Sequence record: OZ035767.1
Length of the DNA stretch: 44,816 nt
Strand: one strand, 5' to 3'
Source of the DNA: Veterinaerplatzvirus T145P1
Notes under the pieces: model-generated
Told to the model about the DNA's origin: nothing
Database searches by the model: none
The model's input: only the letters and a program-made list of their open reading frames with translations
In this document: one piece after another, positions 2,624 through 42,839 of the stretch
Layout of the letters: each line of letters opens with the position of its first letter
How positions within the stretch are numbered: the stretch's first letter is position 1
Translations under genes and position numbers: made by a program

Positions 2624-3874
2624 ATGGTAAAGACAGACAGCTACGCCAATATCTTTCTCGGCGGCAGTGATGGTAGTGAGATTTACGGGAGCTTACAGAA
2701 TCAGGAGCCTACAATCCTGGCTTCTCTTTATGCGAATAATGCGCTGGTACGTAGAATTATCGACACAATCCCTGAGACAGCATTAGCGGCAGGATTCCAC
2801 ATTGATGGTATTGATGATGAGCCAGCATTTTGGTCGCGATGGGATGACCTGGAAATGACGCAGAATATTAACGACGCCTGGGCGTGGGCGAGATTATTCG
2901 GTGGCGCCGCTATTGTGGCTATCGTTAAGGACAATAGGGCACTAACAAGTGCGGTCAGAGAAGGTGCTGAGCTTGAAACAGTTCGCGTTTACGACCGCAC
3001 GCAAGTAAAAGTACAAACTCGCGAGGAGAATCCCCGTAACGCACGTTTTGGTAAGCCACTAACCTATCGCATCACCACAAATGAGAGCGATATGTTCTAT
3101 GATGTGCACTACAGCCGAATTCACATCATTGACGGAGAGCGAATTCCTAACGTAATGCGTCGGCAAAATGATGGCTGGGGCCGTAGCGTTCTATCCAGTG
3201 ACATTCTTGACTCAATTAAGGATTACACCAACTGTGAACGACTTGCTACGCAGTTACTGAAGCGCAAGCAGCAGGCGGTGTGGAAGGCAAAAGGTCTGGC
3301 TGAGTTATGTGATGATAGCGAAGGATTTGGTGCAGCTCGATTGAGACTTGCACAGGTTGACAACAATAGCGGCGTAGGCCAGGCGATTGGTATCGATGCG
3401 GAATCTGAAGAATACAGCATTCTCAACTCCGATATTGGCGGGATCGATGCGTTCCTGGATAAGAAGTTCGATAGAATCGTTGCCCTGAGCGGTATCCATG
3501 AAATCATCCTGAAAAACAAGAACGTTGGTGGTGTGTCATCAAGCCAGAATACAGCCCTTGAGACATTCCATAAGCTAGTTGACCGCAAACGTAACTCTGA
3601 GTTGCTTCCTATTCTTGGGTTCTTAATCCCGTTCATCGTAAATGTAGAAGAGTGGTCAGTTGAGTTTTATCCTTTAGCTCAGGAATCAAGCAAGGATAAG
3701 GCTGAGATTCTGGAGAAGAACGTAAACAGCATTGCATCACTAATTGCATCTGGCGCTATGAATGCTAACGAGGCGCGTGATACACTACGAGCCATCGCAC
3801 CAGAGATTAAGATTGGTGATGGTGATATTGAAGCTCAACAACAAGAAAAATCAGAGGAGGTTGTGATTGCTTAA
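2624..3874 (+). CDS. putative portal protein
   Basis: 416 aa, positioned between terminase and head genes. Confidence 0.65.
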   Translation: MVKTDSYANIFLGGSDGSEIYGSLQNQEPTILASLYANNALVRRIIDTIPETALAAGFHIDGIDDEPAFWSRWDDLEMTQNINDAWAWARLFGGAAIVAIVKDNRALTSAVREGAELETVRVYDRTQVKVQTREENPRNARFGKPLTYRITTNESDMFYDVHYSRIHIIDGERIPNVMRRQNDGWGRSVLSSDILDSIKDYTNCERLATQLLKRKQQAVWKAKGLAELCDDSEGFGAARLRLAQVDNNSGVGQAIGIDAESEEYSILNSDIGGIDAFLDKKFDRIVALSGIHEIILKNKNVGGVSSSQNTALETFHKLVDRKRNSELLPILGFLIPFIVNVEEWSVEFYPLAQESSKDKAEILEKNVNSIASLIASGAMNANEARDTLRAIAPEIKIGDGDIEAQQQEKSEEVVIA

Positions 3875-3939
3875 ATTAATTGGTTACGGTGGGGGTTAAT
3901 GAATGATGAATTTGATGGCTTTTAGTGAGGAGAATTGGG

Positions 3940-5028
3940 ATGTCTAAAATCCGATATGACAACGCAAAGTTTAAGGCAACAATCGACGAGAATGGATTCT
4001 TAGTAGATACGCCAGTTGTCGCACGTCTCGGCGTGCAAGTCTACTACATGGAGGACGGCCGCACTGTTCGGGAGTTTCGCCCAGCCGAGGAGGTTTTCAA
4101 AGATGAATCTCTAGCGAGCTACCAGGGCAAGCCAATGACCATGGACCATGTTTTCGTTAACTCAGAGAATGCTAAAGAGGTGGTGGTAGGATCGGTTGCT
4201 GGAAAGGCGGAGCCATTAGGCAGCTCTGTAGTTGCTCCAATTGTTATTTACGATAGTGCCGCCATCAAGGAAGCCATGGCAGGTAATGCAAAGGAGTTAT
4301 CCGTTGGATACTCATCAGTTATTGATTACACCCCCGGCTGGGGCGACCCTGTTACTGGCGAGTACTTCCTCAAGTCTGAAAGTGAGCTATTCGACGTACC
4401 AGAAGGATGGCAGGAGTTCGACGCAATTCAGCGTGACATTAAAGTGAACCATCTGGCAATGGTGTATCGCGGTCGCGCAGGCATTGCCAAATTGAATATG
4501 GACGGTGAGCAGGAAAACCCGTATACTACTGACGTTGATATCAATAAAGAGGATAAACAGGAAATGACAGTTAAAATTAAACTCGACGGCGCGCAGGAAT
4601 TTGAGGTCGCCCCGGAAATCGCCTCTCACATCGAAGCACTGAACGCAAAGGCTGACACCGCAATCGCAGAGCGCGATTCTCTGAAAGCTAAAGTAGATGC
4701 AATGCCAGCTGAAATCGAAGCTGCCGTTGCTAAAGCGAAAGCTGATGCTGATGCCCTAGCCGCTCTGGTTGCTGTTGCTGCTGAGGCTGGTGTTAAGGCT
4801 GACGGTCTGGATGCTAAAGGCATTAAAGTTGCTTACGTTAAAGAAGTCTCCGGTCTTGATGTTAGTGAGAAGTCTGACGCATACATCGACGCGGCATTCG
4901 ACATTGCCAAAGAATCTGATAAAATGGCTGAAGTACGTAAAGCAACTACTGCTTCCGACAAATCTGACAGCGCCGATGAGCCTAAGAAATTAGACCCACG
5001 TGCTCGTTTAGCTAAAATTAAGAAATAA
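3940..5028 (+). CDS. head morphogenesis / scaffold-like protein (possible prohead protease-scaffold)
   Basis: Start moved to ATG 3940 with RBS GAGGAG; C-terminal Ala/Lys/Glu-rich predicted coiled coil; synteny with lambda C/Nu3. Confidence 0.5.
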   Translation: MSKIRYDNAKFKATIDENGFLVDTPVVARLGVQVYYMEDGRTVREFRPAEEVFKDESLASYQGKPMTMDHVFVNSENAKEVVVGSVAGKAEPLGSSVVAPIVIYDSAAIKEAMAGNAKELSVGYSSVIDYTPGWGDPVTGEYFLKSESELFDVPEGWQEFDAIQRDIKVNHLAMVYRGRAGIAKLNMDGEQENPYTTDVDINKEDKQEMTVKIKLDGAQEFEVAPEIASHIEALNAKADTAIAERDSLKAKVDAMPAEIEAAVAKAKADADALAALVAVAAEAGVKADGLDAKGIKVAYVKEVSGLDVSEKSDAYIDAAFDIAKESDKMAEVRKATTASDKSDSADEPKKLDPRARLAKIKK

Positions 5029-9265: not shown

Positions 9266-9288
9266 AACCCTCTTCGGAGGGTTTTTTA
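9266..9288 (+). terminator. rho-independent terminator after major tail protein gene
   Basis: ACCCTC-TTCG-GAGGGT hairpin then T6. Confidence 0.75.
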
Positions 9289-9292
9289 TTGC

Positions 9293-9338
9293 ATAGCACT
9301 TTTTGCTAAAGCGGTTATTCAACTTTGCTGTATAGTTA
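9293..9338 (+). promoter_or_regulatory. conserved palindrome-promoter element, copy 2
   Basis: ATAGCACTTTTTGCTAAA - 22 nt - TATAGTTACC then CATCGAAACGAAA leader. Confidence 0.6.
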
Positions 9339-9369
9339 CCTCATCGAAACGAAATGAGAGATTAAAGAA

Positions 9370-9618
9370 ATGAATAACGTTAAAAACATCATCAAGCTCG
9401 CTGCGGTTCTGTTTGCTTTTTATGCGGTAGTTCAGATTGTAGACCCAACAGGTGAGGCTGATGCCAATAGCAAGGCAAACAAATATACTGTTGAATTTGC
9501 TAAGGCTGAGCGAGCATGTCAGGAGCTTGTAGGTGGCAAAGTTGACCAAATCATGAAATACGGCAAAGAGGTTTGTAAGGACTCGGCTGCTAAGATTGCA
9601 AAAGAAAACACTAAGTAA
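9370..9618 (+). CDS. small secreted/membrane protein (moron-like, own promoter)
   Basis: 82 aa with hydrophobic N-terminal signal-like segment; preceded by promoter-like element 9293-9338. Confidence 0.5.
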   Translation: MNNVKNIIKLAAVLFAFYAVVQIVDPTGEADANSKANKYTVEFAKAERACQELVGGKVDQIMKYGKEVCKDSAAKIAKENTK

Positions 9619-15836: not shown

Positions 15837-15884
15837 TAGTGTAGAATGGCACAAATGATCAAAACAAACATGAGGCTTTGTGAT

Positions 15885-18800
15885 ATGGCTGAAGATATTA
15901 AGATTTATGGTGCTAAGGGTGGTAGCCAGAAGCAGCACCAACCAGTGGAACAAGAAGACAACCTGATTTCATTAAACAAGGTCAAGGTATTACTTGCGGT
16001 TGCTGACGGCGAGGTTGACCCTAACTTCTCAATGAAAGATTTATACCTTGCTGACGTTCCGGTGCAAAACCAGGATGGTAGCTACAACTATGATGGTGTT
16101 CGCGCTGAGTTCCGTGCTGGCACGCAGTATCAGGACTATATCGCCGGGCTTGACGGTGCTAACTCAGAGATTCAGGCATCCAGAGAAATCAAGAACGATA
16201 CCCCGTACATCATTGCGGTTAACAATACTCAGCTTTCAGCAATTCGAGTTAAGCTATTTTGGCCTCGACTGGTTAAGCAAGAAAACAACGGAGACCTGAA
16301 CGGAACAACTTGCGAGTACGCAATTGACCTTTCTGTTAATGGTGGTGCTTACCAGGAATACACTCGCGGAGTTGCTAACGGCAAGACAACTACAGGTTAC
16401 GACCGAAGCATTCGCGTAAACCTTCCGGCAGAGTTTGATAGTGCGCTTGTTCGCATCCGTAAGATTACAGCTGACTCAACGAGCAGCACACTGGTTAACG
16501 GAATGCAGATTACAACCTATCAGGAAGTAATCGACGCCAAATTCCGCTACCCGCTTACGGCTCTGGTCTATGTTGAGTTTGGTTCTGACTTGTTCCCTAA
16601 CGGCATCCCGACAATCTCAATAAAGAAGCGTTGGAAGCTAATTCAGGTACCGACAAACTACGACCCGGAGACAAGGACTTACAGCGGGACATGGAATGGC
16701 TTATTCAAGATGGCATGGTCGAATAACCCGGCATGGGTTCTCTATGACCTGGTGACAAACCGACGCTATGGGCTTGACCAGCGAGAGTTGGGTGTAGAGA
16801 TTGATAAATGGGGCTTGTATGAAGCCGCGCAATTCTGTGACCAGATGGTTCCAGATGGTAAGGGTGGTTTAGAGCCGCGTTACCTTTGCGATATGGTTGT
16901 GCAAAACAAGGTTGAGGCCTACACGCTAATTCGTGATATCTGCTCAATCTTCCGTGGTCTGACTTTCTATGACGGCGAAAAGATTGGCATCGTGGTTGAT
17001 AAGCCTCGCAACCCATCTTACATATTCACCAACGATAACGTTGTAAATGGATTGTTCAGCCGAACCTTTGCCAGTGATAAAAGCCTTTACACCACCGCAA
17101 ACGTTCAGTTTGATGATGTAGAAAACAACTACCAGCAGGATGTTGAGCCGGTATTTGAACTGGAAGCTACTCGCCGATTCGGATTCAATCCTGTCGACCT
17201 CACGGCAATTGGATGCACGAGAAGAAGTGAAGCAAACAGACGCGGCAGATGGCTCCTAAAAACCAACCTGAGAAGCGAAACCATAAGCTTCACTACCGGG
17301 CTGGAAGGCATGATTCCGATGATTGGTGAGGTGATTGCGGTCAATGACGCGGCATGGTCAAGCAACTATCAGTTAAACCTTTCTGGTCGCATTGAATCAG
17401 TTCAGGGATTGCAAGTTTTCACCCCGTTTAAAGTTGACGCAGCGCCGGGTGACAGAATTCTTCTGAACAAGCCTGACGGAAGTCCAGAAGCAAGAACTAT
17501 TGCCAGCGTTTCGGAAGATGGTAGGACAATCAACCTTAACACTGCTTTTAGCTTTGTTGCTCAGCCAGACACGGTATTTGCAATCGACAAGGATAACCTT
17601 GCTCTTCAGCAGTACGTTGTGACCGGGATTCAAAAGGCAGATACTGACGGCTCGGATTCATTCCAGTATACGATTACCGCTGTAGAGTATGACCCGAACA
17701 AGTATGACGAGATTGACTACGGCGTTAACATCGTTGACCGCCCAACTTCAATTGTTGAGCCTGACAGATTGTCGCCACCAGAAAACCTGACCGTGTCAAG
17801 TTATAGTAAGGTTGTTCAGGGCTTGTCGGTTGAGACGATGGTTATCGGATGGGATAAAGCGCCATACGCCAAAACATACAATGTTCAGTGGAGGAAAGAA
17901 AATGGTAACTGGATTAACGTACCAAGAACAGCAAGTACAGAGGTTGATATCGAAGGTATTTACGCGGGAATCTATGATGTTAGGGTTCGCAGCGTATCAG
18001 ATACTGAAAACGTGTCTGCATGGTCTGACATTGTAACGGTATCGCTAACTGGCAAGATTGGTCGTCCATCGGCACCTACGGTTATAACGGCATCAACTGA
18101 TGAAGTATTTGGTATCCGTGTTAAGTGGGGTTTCCCTGATGGCTCTGGCGATACTGCTTATACTGAACTTCAGCAGGTTGCTGATAATGGTGATGGTACA
18201 TACAATCCTGATAACGCAAGTTTGCTTACGTTACTTCCGTACCCAGCCTATGAATACTGGCACACGCCAATTCAGCCAGGCAAGGTTATCTGGTATCGCG
18301 CAAGATTGATTGACAGAATCGGAAATACGTCTGATTGGTCTAATTTCGCAAGAGGCATGAGTACTGACGACGCCAACATTATCAATGATTACATCAAGGT
18401 TGATATTGAGGGTTCTGAAGGATTCAAATACCTCGAGCAGAATGCGATTCAAAAGAATCAGGACATTCAGAATCAGGCAGAGTCAATTCTTGAGAACGCA
18501 TTGGCTAATGATGGTGATGTTCGTCGCATGACCAAGGAGAACGGCAAACGTAAGGCTGAATATGTTCAGGCGGTGAATCTCATAGCCGATGAAACTCAGG
18601 CACGCGTAGAGGCTCTTACGCAGCTTAAAGCGCAGATTGATGATGAGGTTGTTGGTCAGATTGCAACAATTGAAACAGCGCTAGCCACAGAGACAGAGGC
18701 AAGAGCGACAGCCGACACGGCTTTGAGCGCAAGGGTTGGTAATAACGAGGCGGCTCTAAACCAGAAGCTGGATGCTTTCTCTAATGCCACGTCAACTGGT

Positions 18801-19271
18801 GTACAGTACGGAATTAGTCTTGGCCTGAAATACAATGGACAGACTTATTCATCAGGCATGAGTATGGAACTTGTTGGTACTGGTGGGAATGTTCGCAGTC
18901 AGTTCATCTTTGACGCAAACAGATTCGCAATCAGTAACGGCATTGGTTCTGGTTCCGGTCAGTGGCAGCTCCCCTTCGTTGTCGAGAACGGAAACGTAAT
19001 CATCCAAAGCGCAGTAATCGGCGACGGATCAATTACTAACGCGAAGATTGGTAATATAATTTCATCAAATGATTATGTGGCAGGCTCTCAGGGGTGGGCG
19101 ATACTGAAAAGTGGTGCGTCAGAGTTCAATAACACAACTGTAAGGGGCAATCTTTACGCTAACAATGGTAACTTTGCTTTTAACGGAACCAATAACACGG
19201 TTCAGATTAACAATAACGGAATCACTGTAAACTTACCGAACGGAGGAAGAGTGGTAGTTGGAGTGTGGTAA
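15885..19271 (+). CDS. central tail fibre / host specificity protein (lambda J-like)
   Basis: About 1130 aa; N-terminus aligns by eye with lambda J; start chosen at ATG 15885 (RBS GAGG), could be 15846. Confidence 0.85.
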   Translation: MAEDIKIYGAKGGSQKQHQPVEQEDNLISLNKVKVLLAVADGEVDPNFSMKDLYLADVPVQNQDGSYNYDGVRAEFRAGTQYQDYIAGLDGANSEIQASREIKNDTPYIIAVNNTQLSAIRVKLFWPRLVKQENNGDLNGTTCEYAIDLSVNGGAYQEYTRGVANGKTTTGYDRSIRVNLPAEFDSALVRIRKITADSTSSTLVNGMQITTYQEVIDAKFRYPLTALVYVEFGSDLFPNGIPTISIKKRWKLIQVPTNYDPETRTYSGTWNGLFKMAWSNNPAWVLYDLVTNRRYGLDQRELGVEIDKWGLYEAAQFCDQMVPDGKGGLEPRYLCDMVVQNKVEAYTLIRDICSIFRGLTFYDGEKIGIVVDKPRNPSYIFTNDNVVNGLFSRTFASDKSLYTTANVQFDDVENNYQQDVEPVFELEATRRFGFNPVDLTAIGCTRRSEANRRGRWLLKTNLRSETISFTTGLEGMIPMIGEVIAVNDAAWSSNYQLNLSGRIESVQGLQVFTPFKVDAAPGDRILLNKPDGSPEARTIASVSEDGRTINLNTAFSFVAQPDTVFAIDKDNLALQQYVVTGIQKADTDGSDSFQYTITAVEYDPNKYDEIDYGVNIVDRPTSIVEPDRLSPPENLTVSSYSKVVQGLSVETMVIGWDKAPYAKTYNVQWRKENGNWINVPRTASTEVDIEGIYAGIYDVRVRSVSDTENVSAWSDIVTVSLTGKIGRPSAPTVITASTDEVFGIRVKWGFPDGSGDTAYTELQQVADNGDGTYNPDNASLLTLLPYPAYEYWHTPIQPGKVIWYRARLIDRIGNTSDWSNFARGMSTDDANIINDYIKVDIEGSEGFKYLEQNAIQKNQDIQNQAESILENALANDGDVRRMTKENGKRKAEYVQAVNLIADETQARVEALTQLKAQIDDEVVGQIATIETALATETEARATADTALSARVGNNEAALNQKLDAFSNATSTGVQYGISLGLKYNGQTYSSGMSMELVGTGGNVRSQFIFDANRFAISNGIGSGSGQWQLPFVVENGNVIIQSAVIGDGSITNAKIGNIISSNDYVAGSQGWAILKSGASEFNNTTVRGNLYANNGNFAFNGTNNTVQINNNGITVNLPNGGRVVVGVW

Positions 19272-19276
19272 TAAAT

Positions 19277-19305
19277 AAAGCCCCTTAATTGGGGCTTTTC
19301 TTTTA
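19277..19305. terminator. bidirectional terminator between convergent J and minus-strand tail genes
   Basis: AAAGCCCC-TTAATT-GGGGCTTT flanked by A/T runs on both sides. Confidence 0.7.
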
Positions 19306-20274
19306 GTAGAAGTTTGGGATAAATGGAAGTGCCATTGATATGTTCGTGTCGAAAGGAAACTGAGCGCCTGTCTGAGTTGAGTAGTTACCTATTACAGATC
19401 CAGGAACAGCCCTAACGGAGCCTCCAGACATGCAAACACCCTTGTATCGTAAGTTGTTATACCCTCCGGTAACTCTAGTCGTAGCGCCGCACCTAAGCAG
19501 CGGGAAGAAACCACCATTTATTGACTGATATCCATTGCTTATTTGTATAAATCCACCAAGAACGAATGGGCGGCGAACACTTGAAAAAACAATCTGACCA
19601 GAACTATTTGACATTGTGAGTCCAGGCCCGGCCGGTGGTGGTTCATTCCTGAATATCACCAGCTGAACATGGGTACTTGCCGCAACATCATCTGTACCTC
19701 CGTAGGTTATATCCCTACACCATATTGTTGATCCATCTGATTCAAGTGATACGTTTGGATTATCCCACTTGCCGAATGGTATTCCGCTAACTGGTAGCGA
19801 TGCTGCACCGTTAACCTGTATGCCCCCAACCCAGGCCGCAGACATTAGCCGCGAGTTGCTTGATATAGCAAGGAAATCAGTTGAGTTCTCAACAAGTATT
19901 CCAGGACTTGATGAGGATGAAGCCGGTAGTATCTCAAAGCAATTACCAGCAAAGTCAATTATTCGACCATTAGCACCATTGAAGTTGCTGAGAGTTATCC
20001 TGCCAGTTCCGTCATTTACCTTTTGAAACCCGTTCATGTAATAAACTTCGGGTATAACATCGTAAGCGTCAACGTGGACTGCCTTCGTTGGTAGGCAGAA
20101 AGCCGTAGAGCCAGGAGACATTGTCAATCCAAAATCCCACGAGATTGCCGGGGTTGAAAGTCCATTGGTATTTATTGATCCAGTCACAGCAGGTGCCCTT
20201 AATCCTGCCGTGATTTCCATCGCTGGTCTTCCGTCATTGAGGTCAATCAATATACCCTGCGGCATTATTTCCAC
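19303..20274 (-). CDS. tail-associated protein, candidate receptor-binding protein
   Basis: 323 aa Gly/Ser/Asn-rich, convergent to J, co-transcribed with a small lipoprotein; function inferred from context. Confidence 0.45.
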
Positions 20275-20510
20275 TCCTTACTGCCGTGATCTGCAACAGA
20301 ACCGCCGTAACCGCCGCCAGATTTGCTTTCAATGCCAGCGTAGCGAATATCAACCTCACCAGCCGGAACAACTACACCGCCTTTCCACTTAGCTACGCAC
20401 ACGCCGTTTGCTTGTGTTGCACACCACCCATCAGGTCGAGGACCAGAAGAACAACCTACTGTCATGATTACTGCCGCCGAGATGATTGCTGATTTGATGA
20501 AGTTAGTCAT
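20265..20510 (-). CDS. small outer-membrane lipoprotein, Cor/Llp-like superinfection exclusion candidate
   Basis: Start moved to ATG 20510 (RBS AAGGAA); signal peptide with lipobox-like TVGC; about 81 aa. Confidence 0.5.
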
Positions 20511-20546
20511 TTTGTATTCCTTATTAAGTTGTTTCGTTTCGATGTA

Positions 20547-20594
20547 GTAATAATACAACCGTCAGTGCGGAATGTCTTTAGCTATTCGTGCTAT
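20547..20594 (-). promoter_or_regulatory. conserved palindrome-promoter element, copy 3 (minus strand)
   Basis: Reverse complement reads ATAGCACGAATAGCTAAA ... TATTATTAC ... CATCGAAACGAAAC upstream of the lipoprotein gene. Confidence 0.5.
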
Positions 20595-20692
20595 TGCATA
20601 CACGTAACCGATGTAACTAGATGTATACAATCTCATCCGCGGAAAATGATATACGCACTGTTACGCAAATTTACGCATTGGTTACATTAAAA

Positions 20693-30080: not shown

Positions 30081-30496
30081 AGATTACAGATAAAGAAGAT
30101 TACATTGAGTTTTACCCGGGTCCGGTTAAGTCATGCCCTAAAGAGGATGACGAACAAATCTTTTGCTCTGATTGGGTTAAGTATAACTACCCAGATATGG
30201 TATTTTTCCATTGCGTGAATGAGGGAAAGAAAACCATTGGTCAAGCAAGAAAAGACCAGGCTAAGGGGCTTCTAAAAGGCGTATCAGACTGTATGTTTCT
30301 TATTCCTGAATCACTTCGAGGTAAGTATCCTTTCGGAGCTATAGAGCTAAAGAGGGCTGGCAAAACTCAAGCAAGTCCAGTCAGCGAAGAACAGAAGGCA
30401 TTCCTGAAAAGTGTAATGGAATCAGGCGGTTTCTCGGCAGTCGCCTACGGACGTGAGGGTTTTCTTGCAGCATTCAAAGAAATGATTTCAAAATAG
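30077..30496 (+). CDS. VRR-NUC domain nuclease
   Basis: 139 aa with PD-(D/E)XK-like D...ELK core; ATGA-coupled to helicase. Confidence 0.6.
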   Translation: MKITDKEDYIEFYPGPVKSCPKEDDEQIFCSDWVKYNYPDMVFFHCVNEGKKTIGQARKDQAKGLLKGVSDCMFLIPESLRGKYPFGAIELKRAGKTQASPVSEEQKAFLKSVMESGGFSAVAYGREGFLAAFKEMISK

Positions 30497-30538
30497 CACG
30501 AATTGCTAAAGGCGATTTTAAAAGATGGGGTATAGTTA
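30493..30538 (+). promoter_or_regulatory. conserved palindrome-promoter element
   Basis: ATAGCACGAATTGCTAAA - 22 nt - TATAGTTACTCCATCGAAACGAAAC; VRR-NUC stop TAG inside palindrome. Confidence 0.6.
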
Positions 30539-30572
30539 CTCCATCGAAACGAAACACAAAGAGAGAAATAAA

Positions 30573-30773
30573 ATGGCTACTATCTACACTGGAAAATTCT
30601 ACGAATCACGCAAAACTGGTTACGAATATGAGTTGGTCATCACAGAAGATGGTTACATCCTCATTGATGTAATGGATGGAGATTACTCTTTCGAAGTTAG
30701 CCCTAGCTACAAAGATGATTTAGAAACTGTTAAAAACGAATTTGGCGAAAAATTTGATGAGGTATCAGAATGA
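30573..30773 (+). CDS. hypothetical protein
   Basis: Start ATG 30573 after promoter-like element and RBS. Confidence 0.5.
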   Translation: MATIYTGKFYESRKTGYEYELVITEDGYILIDVMDGDYSFEVSPSYKDDLETVKNEFGEKFDEVSE

Positions 30774-32315: not shown

Positions 32316-33446
32316 ATGGCAACCGCAAAAATCACCAACGAACAATTGCGCGAAGAGTTAGCAAATGGCATGACCAACAAGGCAATCGCAGAGAAGTACG
32401 GAATGAACATTCGCAACGTTGAATTGCGTCGCAGTAAATTAGCTAAACAAGGCGAAGGGCATGGTCGCGATGTAAGCAACTTAATCCCTCAGGGCTATGC
32501 AGTTAAAGGCGTCTCCAGCTTAATTGGTGCTGATGGCGAGATTAAGCAACAGTGGGTTAAATCAGATATCGACAAGGAGAAGCAAGAAGAGATGATGCTT
32601 CAGGCAATTCAGGCCCTAACTGATGAGTTGCCGCGTGAGAAAGCTAAAGCTTTAAGGGTTGGTTTATGGGAAGATACTTTAAGCCTTTACCCCGTGTTCG
32701 ACCTCCACATTGGAGCAATGGCTCATCATGCTGAGTGTGGTGAGAACTATAGTACTGAAATCGCTGAGAGAGTTCTTAATGATTACTTTGATTACGCGGT
32801 TGCAAAGGCCCCCAACTCCAAGAAAGCTGTATTGCTGATTGGGGGTGACTTCCTTCACTCTGACGGAATGGAAGCGGTAACACCAACCAGTCGTCATGTT
32901 CTTGATCAAGATAGCCGTTATCACAAACTTGTTTACGTAGCAGTGCGATCGACACGTCGAGCAATTAGCCGCATGCTTGATAAGCACGCCGAGGTTGAGG
33001 TTCAGATTATTCCAGGTAACCACGATCTCTCAGGTATGATTTGGCTTCGTGCTGCAATGGCAGCTTTCTATATGGATGAGCCTCGAGTTAATGTTGATGC
33101 GTCCCCCGCTGCGCTTCACGTAACGCAATTTGGGAAGACGCTGCTTGGTTACTGCCATGGGCACGAACTCAAAAAGCCTGATACCCGACTATCAGCACTG
33201 GCTCGTGACCATCGCAAAGCATTTGGTGAATCAGAGTATGTTTACACCCATTCAGGCCACTATCACCATCAAACTATTACGGAAGGAAATCTGGGTATTG
33301 ATGAATCACACGGCCAGCTTGGAGCGAAAGATGCGTACAGTGCTAACGGAGGTTATCGCTCTTACCGACAGGCTTCGGTGATAATTTATAGTCCTGAGTT
33401 TGGTGAGATTGGACGATTTACTTGCCGCCCGGAAATGTTTAGTTAA
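32316..33446 (+). CDS. calcineurin-like metallophosphoesterase with N-terminal HTH-like domain
   Basis: GDFLHSD, GNHD, GH motifs characteristic of metallophosphatases; N-terminal segment resembles sigma-70 region-4-type HTH. Confidence 0.6.
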   Translation: MATAKITNEQLREELANGMTNKAIAEKYGMNIRNVELRRSKLAKQGEGHGRDVSNLIPQGYAVKGVSSLIGADGEIKQQWVKSDIDKEKQEEMMLQAIQALTDELPREKAKALRVGLWEDTLSLYPVFDLHIGAMAHHAECGENYSTEIAERVLNDYFDYAVAKAPNSKKAVLLIGGDFLHSDGMEAVTPTSRHVLDQDSRYHKLVYVAVRSTRRAISRMLDKHAEVEVQIIPGNHDLSGMIWLRAAMAAFYMDEPRVNVDASPAALHVTQFGKTLLGYCHGHELKKPDTRLSALARDHRKAFGESEYVYTHSGHYHHQTITEGNLGIDESHGQLGAKDAYSANGGYRSYRQASVIIYSPEFGEIGRFTCRPEMFS

Positions 33447-33491
33447 TAGCACTTTTTGCCTAACGCATGCCGTAGAAATGCGGCATAATTA
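33446..33491 (+). promoter_or_regulatory. conserved palindrome-promoter element (variant)
   Basis: ATAGCACTTTTTGCCTAA - 22 nt - CATAATTACCACATCGAAACGAGA. Confidence 0.55.
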
Positions 33492-33530
33492 CCACATCGA
33501 AACGAGATGAACTAAACGAGGAAACACAAA

Positions 33531-33707
33531 ATGACTAAAATGATTTATTGCACCAAAAACAACTCCAAAACGCTGCCATTTACAGTTAACCAGCCGTACA
33601 ATGCAGAGTACCAGGGTGATGGATATTACAAGATTTACGGTGACGATATGACGTGGATTTTAGCGCCGATTGAAGGTTCACTGGTTGAATTTATTATCGC
33701 TGACTAG
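33531..33707 (+). CDS. hypothetical small protein
   Basis: 58-aa ORF after promoter-like element and RBS GAGGAA; followed by terminator. Confidence 0.4.
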   Translation: MTKMIYCTKNNSKTLPFTVNQPYNAEYQGDGYYKIYGDDMTWILAPIEGSLVEFIIAD

Positions 33708-37357: not shown

Positions 37358-37707
37358 TTGTATTGAGCCTCAAATCTGTAGTCGCCGCAGATTGTAATAA
37401 ATCCAACCTCATCATCCCTTAAAAGCTGCCAAGCATTACCCTCTTTATCGTAAATGCATCCAGCGCGCTGCCCAAGTCCAGCATGGAGATCTACTTGATA
37501 TCGCTTACCTTCAGTAAAGTATTTTCGAATAGATGAGCGATGATTGACCTTTGTGCAATAAATTGTCTTTGTCTTAATATACTTTCCGCGCTCTTCCAGG
37601 TTAATCCATTTGCCATCTTTCTTGATTTGCTCTACACCATCTTTAACGCGAGATTTGTAGAGTACGTTTTCGTTGCTGATCCAGTTTTTGGTAATCGTAG
37701 TAGTCAT
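37354..37707 (-). CDS. hypothetical protein
   Basis: 117 aa; first gene after minus-strand promoter element 37747-37790. Confidence 0.5.
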   Translation of the reverse strand: MTTTITKNWISNENVLYKSRVKDGVEQIKKDGKWINLEERGKYIKTKTIYCTKVNHRSSIRKYFTEGKRYQVDLHAGLGQRAGCIYDKEGNAWQLLRDDEVGFITICGDYRFEAQYK

Positions 37708-37746
37708 TTCTTTTACCCTTCGTTGTTTCGTTTCGTTTCGATTGGA

Positions 37747-37790
37747 TAACTATACATTGAAAGCCCCGAAGGGCTTTAGCAATTAGTGCT
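37747..37790 (-). promoter_or_regulatory. conserved palindrome-promoter element (minus strand)
   Basis: Reverse complement: AGCACTAATTGCTAAA - 22 nt containing a GC hairpin - TATAGTTA, then CGAAACGAAACGAAAC leader. Confidence 0.6.
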
Positions 37791-37937
37791 GTTTCGTGCT
37801 TTCTCTATCGCCTTGAGCATAATCTCGTGACTTTCCAGTAAGTCCTCTCGGAACCAATCTCCACAAGGCCAGCCTTTTCCGCTATAGGCACTTATGACCT
37901 CGAGATCGAAATAATTTATCTCAGATGGTAATAGCAT
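37776..37937 (-). CDS. hypothetical small protein
   Basis: 53-aa ORF, ATGA-coupled; stop codon lies inside the palindromic element. Confidence 0.35.
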   Translation of the reverse strand: MLLPSEINYFDLEVISAYSGKGWPCGDWFREDLLESHEIMLKAIEKARNSTNC

Positions 37938-40151: not shown

Positions 40152-40241
40152 TAGACTACCATACCACTTGCGGTACAGCGAGGAAGAGGTTGAGGTGGCC
40201 ATTGAGTTCTATCGGAAAGCTAAATCACTACTGAATGGTAA

Positions 40242-40287
40242 ATAGCACTTTTTGCCTAACGCGGTAATGCCATGGATGGCATAATAG
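40242..40287 (+). promoter_or_regulatory. conserved palindrome-promoter element (variant)
   Basis: ATAGCACTTTTTGCCTAA - 22 nt - CATAATAGCCTCATCGAAACGAGA. Confidence 0.55.
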
Positions 40288-40323
40288 CCTCATCGAAACG
40301 AGATACGTAAATGAGGATTTAAA

Positions 40324-40542
40324 ATGAGCAAGACAATCACGCTGCAATGCCTTAAGACAAATAACCCAGAGTTCTTAAAAGGTCACAAATATGTGGCAAC
40401 CCTGGTGGATGGGAAAACATGGGCGGTTAAGGGTGGATTCCAGGATTACAAATTCCCACTTGAGCACATACCTGGCGGAAACCTTGGTTTTGTTAGTGAC
40501 TGCCGCTCAGTTAAGTTTGTTTTTGAGGTTGTAATGAAATAG
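40324..40542 (+). CDS. hypothetical protein
   Basis: 72 aa, own promoter-like element. Confidence 0.5.
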   Translation: MSKTITLQCLKTNNPEFLKGHKYVATLVDGKTWAVKGGFQDYKFPLEHIPGGNLGFVSDCRSVKFVFEVVMK

Positions 40543-42455: not shown

Positions 42456-42589
42456 TTTACATCCACACGTACTACACTGGTAAGTTTAATAGCGTCAAAC
42501 ATGTCCGTGTTCACGATAACTACGAGAGCGCAAAAGCTCAATGGTTGGTTCTTGGTGGTGACATTAATTCATACAGAGTTGCTGAGTAG
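42452..42589 (+). CDS. hypothetical small protein
   Basis: 45-aa ORF, ATGA overlap; stop TAG embedded in palindromic element. Confidence 0.35.
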   Translation: MIYIHTYYTGKFNSVKHVRVHDNYESAKAQWLVLGGDINSYRVAE

Positions 42590-42632
42590 CACTAATTGCT
42601 AAAACAGTATTGGGGTAATTTGTTATAGTTAC
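42586..42632 (+). promoter_or_regulatory. conserved palindrome-promoter element
   Basis: GTAGCACTAATTGCTAAA - 22 nt - TATAGTTACCCCATCGAAACGAGAGAGG. Confidence 0.6.
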
Positions 42633-42659
42633 CCCATCGAAACGAGAGAGGAATAAGAA

Positions 42660-42839
42660 ATGACATTTCAACAAAGTGAGCCAAAGCTCCAGGCTAATCA
42701 CTTCGATGGTTATTCGACCTTTACCATTGCCCAGGCCTGCGGGATGCGTGACGAACCACAGGTTCACACAATTCACTTAACCGAAGAGCAGGCTCGAGAG
42801 ATTGCTTACGAAATTCTTGAGCAATTGAACCGAATTTAA
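42660..42839 (+). CDS. hypothetical small protein
   Basis: 59-aa ORF after promoter element and RBS. Confidence 0.4.
   Translation: MTFQQSEPKLQANHFDGYSTFTIAQACGMRDEPQVHTIHLTEEQAREIAYEILEQLNRI

Follow-up and report, generated by a model that had tools for sequence, protein, structure and literature searches.

The segment between positions 19303 and 20510 of the window, the 44,816-nt stretch of Veterinaerplatzvirus T145P1 DNA analyzed here (sequence record OZ035767.1), carries two genes on the minus strand, one for a receptor-binding protein (RBP) and one for a small lipoprotein. It is very probably a cassette for host recognition in a coliphage of the genus Veterinaerplatzvirus (Drexlerviridae, Braunvirinae), with an RBP that binds LptD and a lipoprotein that blocks LptD. 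Pairs of an LptD-type RBP and an exclusion lipoprotein are already known from close relatives (Maffei 2021; Black et al. 2025, PMC13035648; Dunbar et al. 2025, PMC12685063). An earlier note on this DNA had proposed the pairing of an RBP with a receptor-blocking exclusion lipoprotein, and had suggested a comparison with FhuA- or BtuB-binding proteins. The pairing is supported by the homology of both halves, to OzMSK_038 and the Oekolampad RBP on one side and to Rtp45 on the other; the receptor indicated by the same homologies and by the Rtp45–LptDE complex is LptD, not FhuA or BtuB.

The two genes lie directly after gpJ, which is the position of all LptD-type "bona fide RBP loci" (Maffei 2021; 2026 preprint). 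J itself (15846..19271, plus strand) was recognized by Pfam PF09327 (119.9 bits), by FNIII-A_GpJ and Phage-tail_3 domains, and by PHROG 31 ("central tail fiber J"), and the convergence of the minus-strand pair with J, as claimed earlier, was confirmed. The RBP, a product of its own gene, presumably docks on the J segment at 18756..19172 (plus strand). A terminator-like hairpin, AAAGCCCC-TTAATT-GGGGCTTT, was detected on both strands at 19277..19298, and we read it as a bidirectional intrinsic terminator common to J and the convergent lipoprotein–RBP operon; terminators are annotated at the equivalent position in the AKS96 and SU57 records, and OzMSK, whose locus is 91.7% identical, shares it. 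The lipoprotein gene had been called the downstream member of the pair. On the transcribed minus strand it is in fact upstream (20510→20265) and promoter-proximal, and the order of lipoprotein gene followed by RBP gene, with a 1-nt overlap, is common to OzMSK, Rtp, AKS96, SU57, and e4/1c. Judged by this layout, the lipoprotein gene is the first gene of a two-gene operon (19303-20510, minus strand), co-directional with the RBP gene and translationally coupled to it. Searches of both proteins against the PADLOC defense models and the NCBIfam profiles returned no match.

The ORF finder reported the larger ORF at 19303..20274 (minus strand), encoding 323 aa from a GTG codon. This ORF, as originally described, is real; the gene most likely begins, however, not at GTG 20274 but at the ATG at 20265-20263, which gives a 320-aa protein (19303..20265, minus strand). 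The ATG is favored by the spacing of the Shine-Dalgarno sequence, the overlap with the preceding gene, the length of the orthologues, and the alignment to a solved homologue. AAGGAG (20274..20279, minus strand), read from the sequence within the 3'-terminal part of the lipoprotein gene, stands 8 nt before ATG 20265 but abuts and overlaps GTG 20274, and an RBS is annotated at the equivalent position in OzMSK and SU57. The ATG overlaps the lipoprotein stop codon TAA (20267-20265) by 1 base, forming TAATG, and the annotated RBP orthologues of OzMSK, Rtp, AKS96, SU57, and e4/1c are all 963 nt long and all have the 1-nt overlap. The alignment to the solved homologue starts at the Met encoded by ATG 20265. 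LptD-type RBPs are recognized as ORFs of 930-966 nt immediately downstream of a gpJ homologue (Black et al. 2025; Maffei 2021); here, the RBP gene, 963 nt in length, occupies 19303-20265, directly after the end of J at 19271.

The RBP matched Pfam PF20051 (DUF6453) at 463.9 bits (E=2.8e-139; cut-off 25 bits), with residues 7-300 on profile positions 1-291; by this match it is not a chance ORF. Rtp44 and the Oekolampad RBP also match PF20051. Compared with PDB 9RPT chain C, residues 5-323 of the 323-aa ORF aligned with residues 2-321 (E=1.5e-67). The protein is 96.9% identical to OzMSK_038, 42.9% to the Oekolampad RBP (326 columns, full length), and ~39-40% to Rtp44 (38.9%), and we assign it to the LptD-type OzMSK/Rogue1 subtype of the family. 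Its reported Gly/Ser/Asn-rich character was reproduced (Gly 12.2%, Ser 10.6%, Asn 7.2%). An N-terminal motif, MxxGIxIDxNDGR, is invariant across the RBP subtypes in the alignment, and Gln299 of RBP(Oeko), the hydrogen-bond partner of LptD Ser350 (Dunbar et al. 2025), aligns with a conserved Gln in the T145P1 protein. The least conserved part of the alignment is formed by the loops at the predicted LptD-binding end (cf. Black et al. 2025). Based on the 43%-identical solved structure and on the AF2 model published for the 97%-identical OzMSK protein (Black et al. 2025), the predicted fold is a two lectin-like β-sandwich with tip loops.

The second ORF reported by the program (20265..20558, minus strand) contains an ATG-started protein of 81 aa at 20265..20510, which we assign as the precursor of an Rtp45-type superinfection-exclusion lipoprotein. 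Its Shine-Dalgarno sequence AAGGAA (20517..20522, minus strand), likewise read from the sequence, lies 6 nt upstream of ATG 20510 and is invariant in an alignment of five relatives. The signal peptide and TVGC lipobox noticed earlier were both recovered: residues 1-19 (20510-20454, minus strand) comprise an n-region with Lys6 and a hydrophobic core, the sequence T-V-G-C ends in Cys20 (codon 20453-20451, minus strand), predicted from the lipobox to be lipidated, and Ser occupies the +2 position. Across six homologues, G19 and C20 do not vary. These are the features of a type II signal peptide, and the residue at +2 is not Asp, which under the Lol pathway rule directs a lipoprotein to the outer membrane.

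Over its positions 1-80 of 80, Pfam PF24052 (Phage_lipoprotein; cut-off 27 bits) matched the lipoprotein at 132 bits (E=7.7e-39), a score by which this ORF, too, is not a chance ORF; the scores of its relatives Rtp45 and SE(Oeko) were 128 and 76.3 bits, respectively. Against PDB 9RPS chain D (Rtp45), the E value was 5.3e-35. Identity was 93.8% to OzMSK_039, 74% (BLASTP) to 79% (global alignment) to Rtp45, and 38-39% to SE(Oeko). Cys20, Cys30, and Cys38 are conserved, C30 and C38 being invariant in the alignment, and residues 30-35 read CATQAN in T145P1 versus CATQAS in Rtp45. In Rtp45, Cys30 and Cys38 form a disulfide, and the strand of residues 30-35 pairs with LptD 318-323 (Dunbar et al. 2025).

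The pair had also been credited with its own promoter element, and a conserved motif was indeed found upstream of the lipoprotein gene. The element (20531..20595, minus strand) consists of ATAGCAC-GAAT-AGCTAAAG, 20 nt, the -10-like hexamer TATTAT (20555-20550), and TACTACATCGAAACGAAAC. Within 3 mismatches, the motif TACTMCATCGAAACGAAAC occurs in 6 copies in the window, compared with 0.03 expected, and its 11-nt core CATCGAAACGA, with one mismatch allowed, occurs in 7; all seven copies share the arrangement ATAGCAC-N4-TGCTAA, ~21 nt, a TATAGT-like hexamer, TACnnCATCGAAACGA, RBS, and ATG. The element is conserved in SU57, AKS96, Rtp, and OzMSK. Because of this conservation across relatives and the seven copies in the genome, we infer that it acts as a promoter. 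The generic sigma-70 consensus scan placed a match at 20578..20550 but, with 5 sites vs 4.5 expected, was by itself uninformative. Scanning the intergenic region for direct and inverted repeats yielded only short AT-rich pairs of doubtful meaning. A block of GCGTAA repeats at 20652-20676 is unique in the window.

The closest known system is OzMSK_038/OzMSK_039 of Escherichia phage vB_ecoS_OzMSK (PQ659294; Black et al. 2025), which has the same gene lengths (963 and 246 nt), the same 1-nt overlap, and the same position after J, but differs by an additional gene, for a DNA methylase, that directly precedes the lipoprotein gene in the same orientation; OzMSK_039 is still annotated as "hypothetical protein". 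OzMSK does not plate on two lptD loop mutants or on an engineered EL11 deletion, a genetic result that bears on the phage as a whole and not on its RBP in isolation (Black et al. 2025), and the GenBank note on OzMSK_038 (PQ659294) also states lptD dependence. In Oekolampad (Bas18), the RBP and SE lipoprotein (bas18_0025 and bas18_0026; PDB 9RPT/9RPW/9RQI) belong to the same two Pfam families and follow a J-like gene in the same order; this phage is of the genus Dhillonvirus, has a 2-nt gap between the genes instead of an overlap, and carries different loops at the receptor-binding end of the RBP, so that details of the interface may differ. RBP(Oeko) binds LptDE in vitro and was seen by cryo-EM inserted in the open state of LptDE (PDB 9RPT; Dunbar et al. 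2025). Infection by Bas01/02/14/18-20/25 is LptD-dependent (Maffei 2021), and a preprint screen specifically associated the DUF6453-type family (>30% identity) with LptD (2026 preprint). Together, these homologies support LptD, and not FhuA or BtuB, as the receptor of the T145P1 phage.

Phage Rtp, of the same subfamily (Braunvirinae), has an identical operon layout for Rtp44/Rtp45 and a promoter region that is 92% identical. It differs in a diverged block that spans the RBP ORF and reaches into both neighbors, over the final ~240 nt of J on one side and the 3'-terminal third of the lipoprotein gene on the other; relative to Rtp45, the T145P1 lipoprotein carries a 5-residue Gly-rich insertion near its C-terminus (SKSGGGYGG vs GSSG). 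Relative to Rtp, the J tip thus co-diverges with the RBP. This co-divergence bears on the strongest rival explanation, according to which the families are the same but this RBP subtype uses another outer-membrane protein or needs a co-receptor, with the lipoprotein acting on that target. Such a reading could also appeal to the 39-43% identity of the RBP to Rtp44 and RBP(Oeko) with divergent tip loops, to the horizontal swapping of RBP cassettes at this locus with receptor switches (Maffei 2021), and to Bas01, an LptD-type phage that also requires NupG, via the J tip (2026 preprint). We consider it very unlikely, as OzMSK, with an RBP 96.9% and a J C-terminus (last 200 aa) 92.5% identical to those of T145P1, is blocked by lptD loop mutations; the association of the DUF6453-type family is specifically with LptD; and the lipoprotein, 74-79% identical to the LptD-bound Rtp45, keeps the contact elements. 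Since Bas01 needs NupG besides LptD, a second receptor for the T145P1 phage is nevertheless conceivable.

The lipoprotein could alternatively belong to the Cor or Llp family proper and block a transporter of the TonB-dependent type, for example FhuA or BtuB, which we regard as highly improbable. A small lipoprotein gene does lie beside host-recognition genes in T1 and T5, in the record of one relative the gene is named "Cor superinfection exclusion protein", and T1 Cor gave a weak, sub-threshold match to PF24052 (17.7 bits vs the cut-off of 27). However, the Cor profile NCBIfam NF047972 (cut-off 31) did not match the T145P1 lipoprotein at E≤0.1, while the control, T1 Cor, scored 55.8 bits. In BLASTP, the similarity to T1 Cor covered 37 aa (residues 9-45, mostly signal peptide; E=0.001) and that to T5 Llp only 22 aa of signal peptide (E=0.003); homology to both was rejected, as was homology of the RBP to pb5, for which BLASTP aligned 8 aa (E=1.1). 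T5 Llp and pb5 gave no match to PF24052 or PF20051. Moreover, Rtp45 was seen on LptDE, which is no TonB-dependent transporter (Dunbar et al. 2025).

The analogy drawn in the earlier note with T5 pb5/Llp and T1/phi80 Cor therefore stands for the functional logic and fails for family membership: as far as homology can tell, the lipoprotein is analogous to Cor and Llp in function without belonging to their families. T5 follows the same logic, in that the tail-tip RBP pb5 (oad) binds an outer-membrane protein and a periplasm-facing lipoprotein from the adjacent gene disables this receptor. The receptor of T5 is FhuA, whereas the T145P1 pair is directed to LptD, and Llp acts by long-range allostery as opposed to physical loop displacement (Dunbar et al. 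2025). In T5, oad (minus strand) and llp (plus strand) are divergent with two annotated promoters between them, whereas the T145P1 genes form a single coupled operon on one strand with a TAATG overlap. Cor of T1/phi80/N15 is alike in being a small minus-strand lipoprotein at the same Drexlerviridae locus after J with receptor-level exclusion; Cor-type loci, however, have two plus-strand genes (~101 and 229 aa) in place of the DUF6453 gene, and their target is FhuA.

With LptD as the preferred target, we propose the following sequence of events. The operon would be read from the conserved phage promoter-like element, convergently with J, the lipoprotein being made first and the RBP through TAATG coupling. 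The RBP would dock on J by its N-terminus, as suggested by published work (Maffei 2021; 2026 preprint) and by the co-divergence of J tip and RBP relative to Rtp, and the loops at its opposite end would insert into LptD, the essential translocon for lipopolysaccharide, at its extracellular mouth; LptD would serve as the terminal receptor and trigger DNA injection. In the infected cell, export of the lipoprotein and its lipidation at Cys20 would be followed by sorting to the outer membrane, where it would sit in the inner leaflet. There it would bind the periplasmic side of the LptD barrel, with a hairpin pushed up through the lumen that displaces extracellular loop 4 (EL4), so that LptD could no longer accept the RBP. 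The infected cell would in this way be shielded from superinfection, and fewer progeny phage would be lost on LptD in cell debris.

This model follows the cryo-EM structure of Rtp45 on LptDEM (PDB 9RPS), in which Rtp45 is bound at the periplasmic face and displaces EL4; the exclusion role of Rtp45 rests on this complex structure (Dunbar et al. 2025), and no in vivo protection assay for Rtp45 or the PF24052 family was found in the literature examined. By homology, the T145P1 RBP would bind LptDE, and the T145P1 lipoprotein would bind LptDE and protect cells, that is, give an exclusion phenotype in vivo. That the lipoprotein is primarily a helper of RBP assembly or maturation, or lysis-related, and co-translated for that reason would fit this lack of a published assay, the TAATG coupling kept in all relatives examined (OzMSK, Rtp, AKS96, SU57, e4/1c), and the poor expression of RBP(Rtp44) and SE(Oeko) alone (Dunbar et al. 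2025), but is scarcely credible given the different compartments (an outer-membrane-anchored lipoprotein versus an RBP that has no signal peptide and assembles in the cytoplasm), the stable Rtp45–LptDE complex with an interface of ~1,000 Å2 and a remodeled EL4 (Dunbar et al. 2025), and the location of the lysis module, including the endolysin, elsewhere in the window (~33.5-34.9 kb).

The practical value of the T145P1 locus lies in annotation, and it opens no new question. The T145P1 database record carries no annotation, the records of relatives label the genes "membrane protein", "hypothetical protein", "tail fiber", or even "Cor", and the Pfam name of the RBP family is still DUF6453. On the homologies above, the two products are correctly named LptD-type receptor-binding protein and Rtp45-type superinfection-exclusion lipoprotein. 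Such names predict LptD as the terminal receptor and resistance of lptD loop-4 or loop-11 mutants. Since LptD is both conserved and essential, phages that use it are of interest for phage therapy, phage steering, and antibiotic design, as are the phage proteins that bind it on the outside (RBP) or the inside (lipoprotein).

A wider reading joins three propositions, and we hold it to be rather unlikely as a whole: that the OzMSK/Rogue1-type RBP engages LptD differently, that there is cross-exclusion, and that the docking interface is universal. Taken singly, the first is that this RBP may differ from the Oekolampad RBP in the conformational state of LptD or in the loops used; a different binding mode is possible because the OzMSK/Rogue1 subtype is ~40% identical to the structurally or genetically anchored subtypes (Oekolampad, Rtp/Bas01) and the tip loops are least conserved. 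The Rtp45-type lipoprotein has been kept across the replacement of the RBP and J tip relative to Rtp, which would mean that one exclusion protein covers several RBP subtypes. The N-terminal RBP motif also occurs in T1 gp31 and gp32, unrelated proteins of an FhuA-type locus, although it is too short for a significance test, and DUF6453 homologues adjoin a Phage_Tail_Tip protein in Kuravirus podophages. Combined with cross-exclusion, the common motif and the Kuravirus neighborhood would point to a universal plug-in docking interface; if true, receptor-binding modules dock by a common interface across phage morphotypes.

As for J itself, its BLAST matches appear truncated at residue 262, probably owing to low-complexity masking of its Asn-rich tail, and its 3' end is conserved in 2725-N35.

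Both genes of the feature (19303-20510) are on the minus strand in the ORF list and converge with a plus-strand J-like gene (15846..19271; 1141 aa; FNIII-A_GpJ, Phage-tail_3, and Phage_Tail_Tip domains), as an earlier note on this DNA had described. A perfect 8 bp hairpin with T-runs on either strand (19277-19298) separates J from the pair. The large gene has been listed as a 323-aa ORF (19303..20274) initiated with a GTG codon, and the small ORF (20265..20558) holds an ATG-started protein of 81 aa (20265..20510). We analyzed the start of the large gene on the minus strand, which reads AAGGAG-TGGAAATA-ATG, and found that the GTG at 20274 falls within the Shine-Dalgarno sequence. Moreover, the stop codon of the small gene overlaps the ATG as TAATG, the annotated orthologues are all 963 nt long with the same 1-nt overlap, and the PDB alignment to a solved homologue begins at the Met of this ATG. 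These observations indicate that the gene, although correctly recognized, almost certainly starts at the ATG at 20265-20263, with a predicted product of 320 aa. On the transcribed strand the small gene comes first and so precedes the large gene, contrary to the downstream position stated before.

The large protein is rich in Gly, Ser, and Asn (12.2%, 10.6%, and 7.2%), as noted previously, and has neither a signal peptide nor a transmembrane-like N-terminus. At the DNA level, the locus is 99.7% identical to Veterinaerplatzvirus T145P1 (Drexlerviridae, Braunvirinae; an unannotated record), 98.9% to phage 2725-N35, and 91.7% to Escherichia phage vB_ecoS_OzMSK (OzMSK). The protein matched the Pfam family DUF6453 (463.9 bits) and, over its whole length, a single PDB sequence (9RPT/9RPW/9RQI chain C; E=1.5e-67), the receptor-binding protein (RBP) of phage Oekolampad solved on LptDE in a 2025 paper (PMC12685063). 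In direct comparisons, it was 96.9% identical to OzMSK_038, 42.9% to the Oekolampad RBP, and 38.9% to Rtp44 of phage Rtp (about 39-40% overall). OzMSK failed to plate on two lptD loop mutants of Maffei et al., and an engineered LptD loop-11 deletion eliminated OzMSK from a laboratory (Black et al., 2025, PMC13035648); its GenBank record labels the orthologue as LptD-receptor binding protein. This type of locus, directly after gpJ, was first tied to LptD by Maffei et al., 2021, and a 2026 screen of 255 phages (preprint) associated the RBP family specifically with LptD. The large gene therefore fits the receptor-binding role proposed for it, with LptD as the probable receptor.

Public labels lag behind this literature: Pfam retains DUF6453, RefSeq relatives are called 'membrane protein', and the lipoprotein of one relative is called 'Cor'. 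The label of PHROG 1265, which the large protein matched and which is filed under 'moron/host takeover; membrane protein', appears to be a misnomer. An RBP 97.5% identical to ours occurs in PP134917 (Pseudomonas phage PsgS01F), labelled as a P. syringae phage, and this record and PQ314493 (E. coli phage UALMA_PCEc3) have equal length (44,679 bp) and identical match statistics. Homologues also occur in records labelled as 'Campylobacter' phage. The host labels of PsgS01F and of the 'Campylobacter' records are doubtful.

The 81-aa protein has the signal peptide and T-V-G-C lipobox reported earlier; its n-region is basic, the core is hydrophobic, and position +2 holds Ser. It matched PF24052 ('Phage_lipoprotein'; 132 bits) and 9RPS chain D, which is Rtp45 (E=5.3e-35), and was 93.8% identical to OzMSK_039 in direct comparison, 74% (BLASTP) or 79% (global alignment) to Rtp45, and 38-39% to the Oekolampad superinfection exclusion protein. 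Rtp45 has been solved on the periplasmic side of LptDE(M) (9RPS): its residues 30-35 pair with LptD strand β6, it has a Cys30-Cys38 disulfide, and its hairpin, reaching up the lumen, shifts extracellular loop 4 (EL4) by as much as 20 Å, a displacement that precludes RBP binding. In the lipoprotein studied here, Cys20, Cys30, and Cys38 are invariant and residues 30-35 read CATQAN, versus CATQAS in Rtp45; the protein departs notably from Rtp45 only in a Gly-rich insertion of five residues close to the C-terminus, also present in the OzMSK, SU57, and AKS96 lipoproteins. Homology thus supports the proposed receptor-blocking role. In the literature searched, we found no report of an in vivo exclusion phenotype for the Rtp45-type family; for the present lipoprotein, we infer one.

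The earlier note had likened the pair to T5 pb5/Llp and to Cor of T1/phi80-type phages. The lipoprotein did not match the NCBIfam Cor equivalog, on which T1 Cor scored 55.8 bits in the same search, and BLASTP aligned T1 Cor and T5 Llp with its signal-peptide region only. T5 Llp and pb5 matched neither DUF6453 nor PF24052, and T1 Cor was sub-threshold on PF24052. The analogy holds in function, but family membership does not. The organization also differs: FhuA/Cor-type loci (T1, LHE71, EC147, and RobRod40) carry two plus-strand genes (~101 and 229 aa) followed by minus-strand cor, and oad and llp of T5 are divergent with separate promoters, whereas the LptD-type locus is a single co-directional operon with translational coupling. 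Likewise, Rtp45 displaces a loop physically, while Llp acts on FhuA by long-range allostery. The earlier interpretation is therefore supported in function, refined to LptD as the receptor, and unsupported as Cor/Llp membership. The feature is already known: earlier work described almost identical genes, backed by experiments, and cryo-EM has resolved members of both families on the receptor. What is useful for this phage is the correct annotation, along with a receptor prediction that can be tested.

The LptD-type RBP N-terminus, M-x-x-G-I-x-I-D-x-N-D-G-R (20263-20225), resembles the N-termini of otherwise unrelated proteins of FhuA-type loci, as in T1 (L003 28607-29601; MSYGAFIDVNGNPF in gp31 and MAYGISTWDANG in gp32) and in three further FhuA/Cor-type loci compared (L010-L012). 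Too short to be assessed statistically, this motif may represent a shared strand that docks onto the J tip. In RobRod40 (CPL00221, OR896835), comparison with 20496-20558(-) revealed a small ORF (L012 5259-5489(-)) in which the leader of the LptD-type lipoprotein gene survives together with its first five codons, apparently a scar left by recombination at the edge of the cassette.

A host-recognition cassette is the best-supported account of the locus. It has been shown for homologues that infection depends on LptD, that the RBP binds LptDE, and that Rtp45 binds LptDE and displaces EL4; for this phage we infer the corresponding steps by homology, and docking on J in addition. The RBP would dock on the J tip, as suggested by three observations: its first ~25 residues are the best-conserved part across subtypes otherwise 33-43% identical, Black et al., 2025 (PMC13035648) placed the conserved residues at the molecule's base, and the 2026 preprint found covariation between the J tip and the type of RBP. 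Its variable tip loops would bind LptD. From one transcript, the lipoprotein would be made just ahead of the RBP and lipidated; with Ser at +2, it would go to the outer membrane and lock LptD in a state unable to accept the RBP, which would prevent superinfection and loss of progeny on debris.

DNA identity to Rtp was ~90% in J up to about 19030, 40-77% in the last ~240 nt of J, and 35-55% in the RBP ORF; it rose again from ~20230, where the RBP start codons lie, to 85-97% across the promoter and the lipoprotein gene's 5' half. In protein, the J tail was 87.6% identical to that of Rtp, the RBP 40%, and the lipoprotein 79%. The block that has diverged from Rtp (NC_007603) lies at 19035-20330; it contains the entire RBP ORF, together with the final ~240 nt of J on one side and the 3' third of the lipoprotein gene on the other. 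The profile delimits the exchangeable block as J tip, RBP, and lipoprotein gene 3' end, in line with Maffei et al., 2021, who described horizontal exchange of such cassettes. That the lipoprotein is largely retained through RBP allele replacement suggests possible cross-exclusion between LptD-RBP subtypes.

Over the 110 nt that precede the lipoprotein gene, SU57, AKS96, and Rtp show 90-95% identity to the window, and the proximal part is retained even in OzMSK, despite a methylase gene inserted just beyond. At ≤3 mismatches, the window holds six copies of the invariant block TACTMCATCGAAACGAAAC, versus 0.03 expected. A relaxed search that tolerated a single mismatch in the 11-nt core gave seven copies: five on the plus strand (cores 9342, 30542, 33495, 40291, and 42635; regions 9267-9375, 30467-30578, 33420-33535, 40216-40330, and 42560-42665) and two on the minus strand (core 20544, region 20505-20619, ahead of the lipoprotein-RBP pair; core 37743, region 37702-37818). 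All seven share one architecture, namely ATAGCAC-N4-TGCTAA, ~21 nt, a TATAGT-like hexamer, TACnnCATCGAAACGA, RBS, and ATG, and the other copies stand before the tape-measure/tail-tip module, the lysis module, a helicase operon, and several small-gene operons. Therefore, the element noted earlier is real and phage-wide; the promoter role assigned to it is plausible. A generic sigma-70 scan by itself gave matches not above chance. The TAGCA/TGCTA palindrome within ATAGCAC-N4-TGCTAA could be a regulator binding site. The spacing between the TTGCTA-like and TATAGT-like hexamers (~22 nt) is non-canonical.

Further upstream, ~100 nt from this element, the divergent intergenic region carries a triple GCGTA direct repeat (GCGTAAATTTGCGTAACAGTGCGTA; 20652-20676(-)), which occurs once in the window and is kept in SU57, AKS96, and Rtp. 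In OzMSK (PQ659294) and MSK, the lipoprotein gene is immediately preceded by a co-directional DNA methylase gene that is absent from the window (L001, the OzMSK locus, 3874-4566(-)), and in OzMSK the proximal promoter-like block survives between the two genes.

DUF6453 proteins also occur in Kuravirus podophages (~70-78 kb; 92.4 bits), with 25% identity to the RBP (E=2e-13) and no solved counterpart except 9RPT. In vB-EcoP-XT18 (OR757434; L013 2432-4433(+)), the gene immediately follows an SU10-type 'tail tip fiber' (solved as PDB 7Z4B), which has the Phage_Tail_Tip domain found at the J C-terminus. This arrangement hints that the pairing of a tail-tip domain with DUF6453, perhaps with an outer-membrane receptor such as LptD, reaches podophages.
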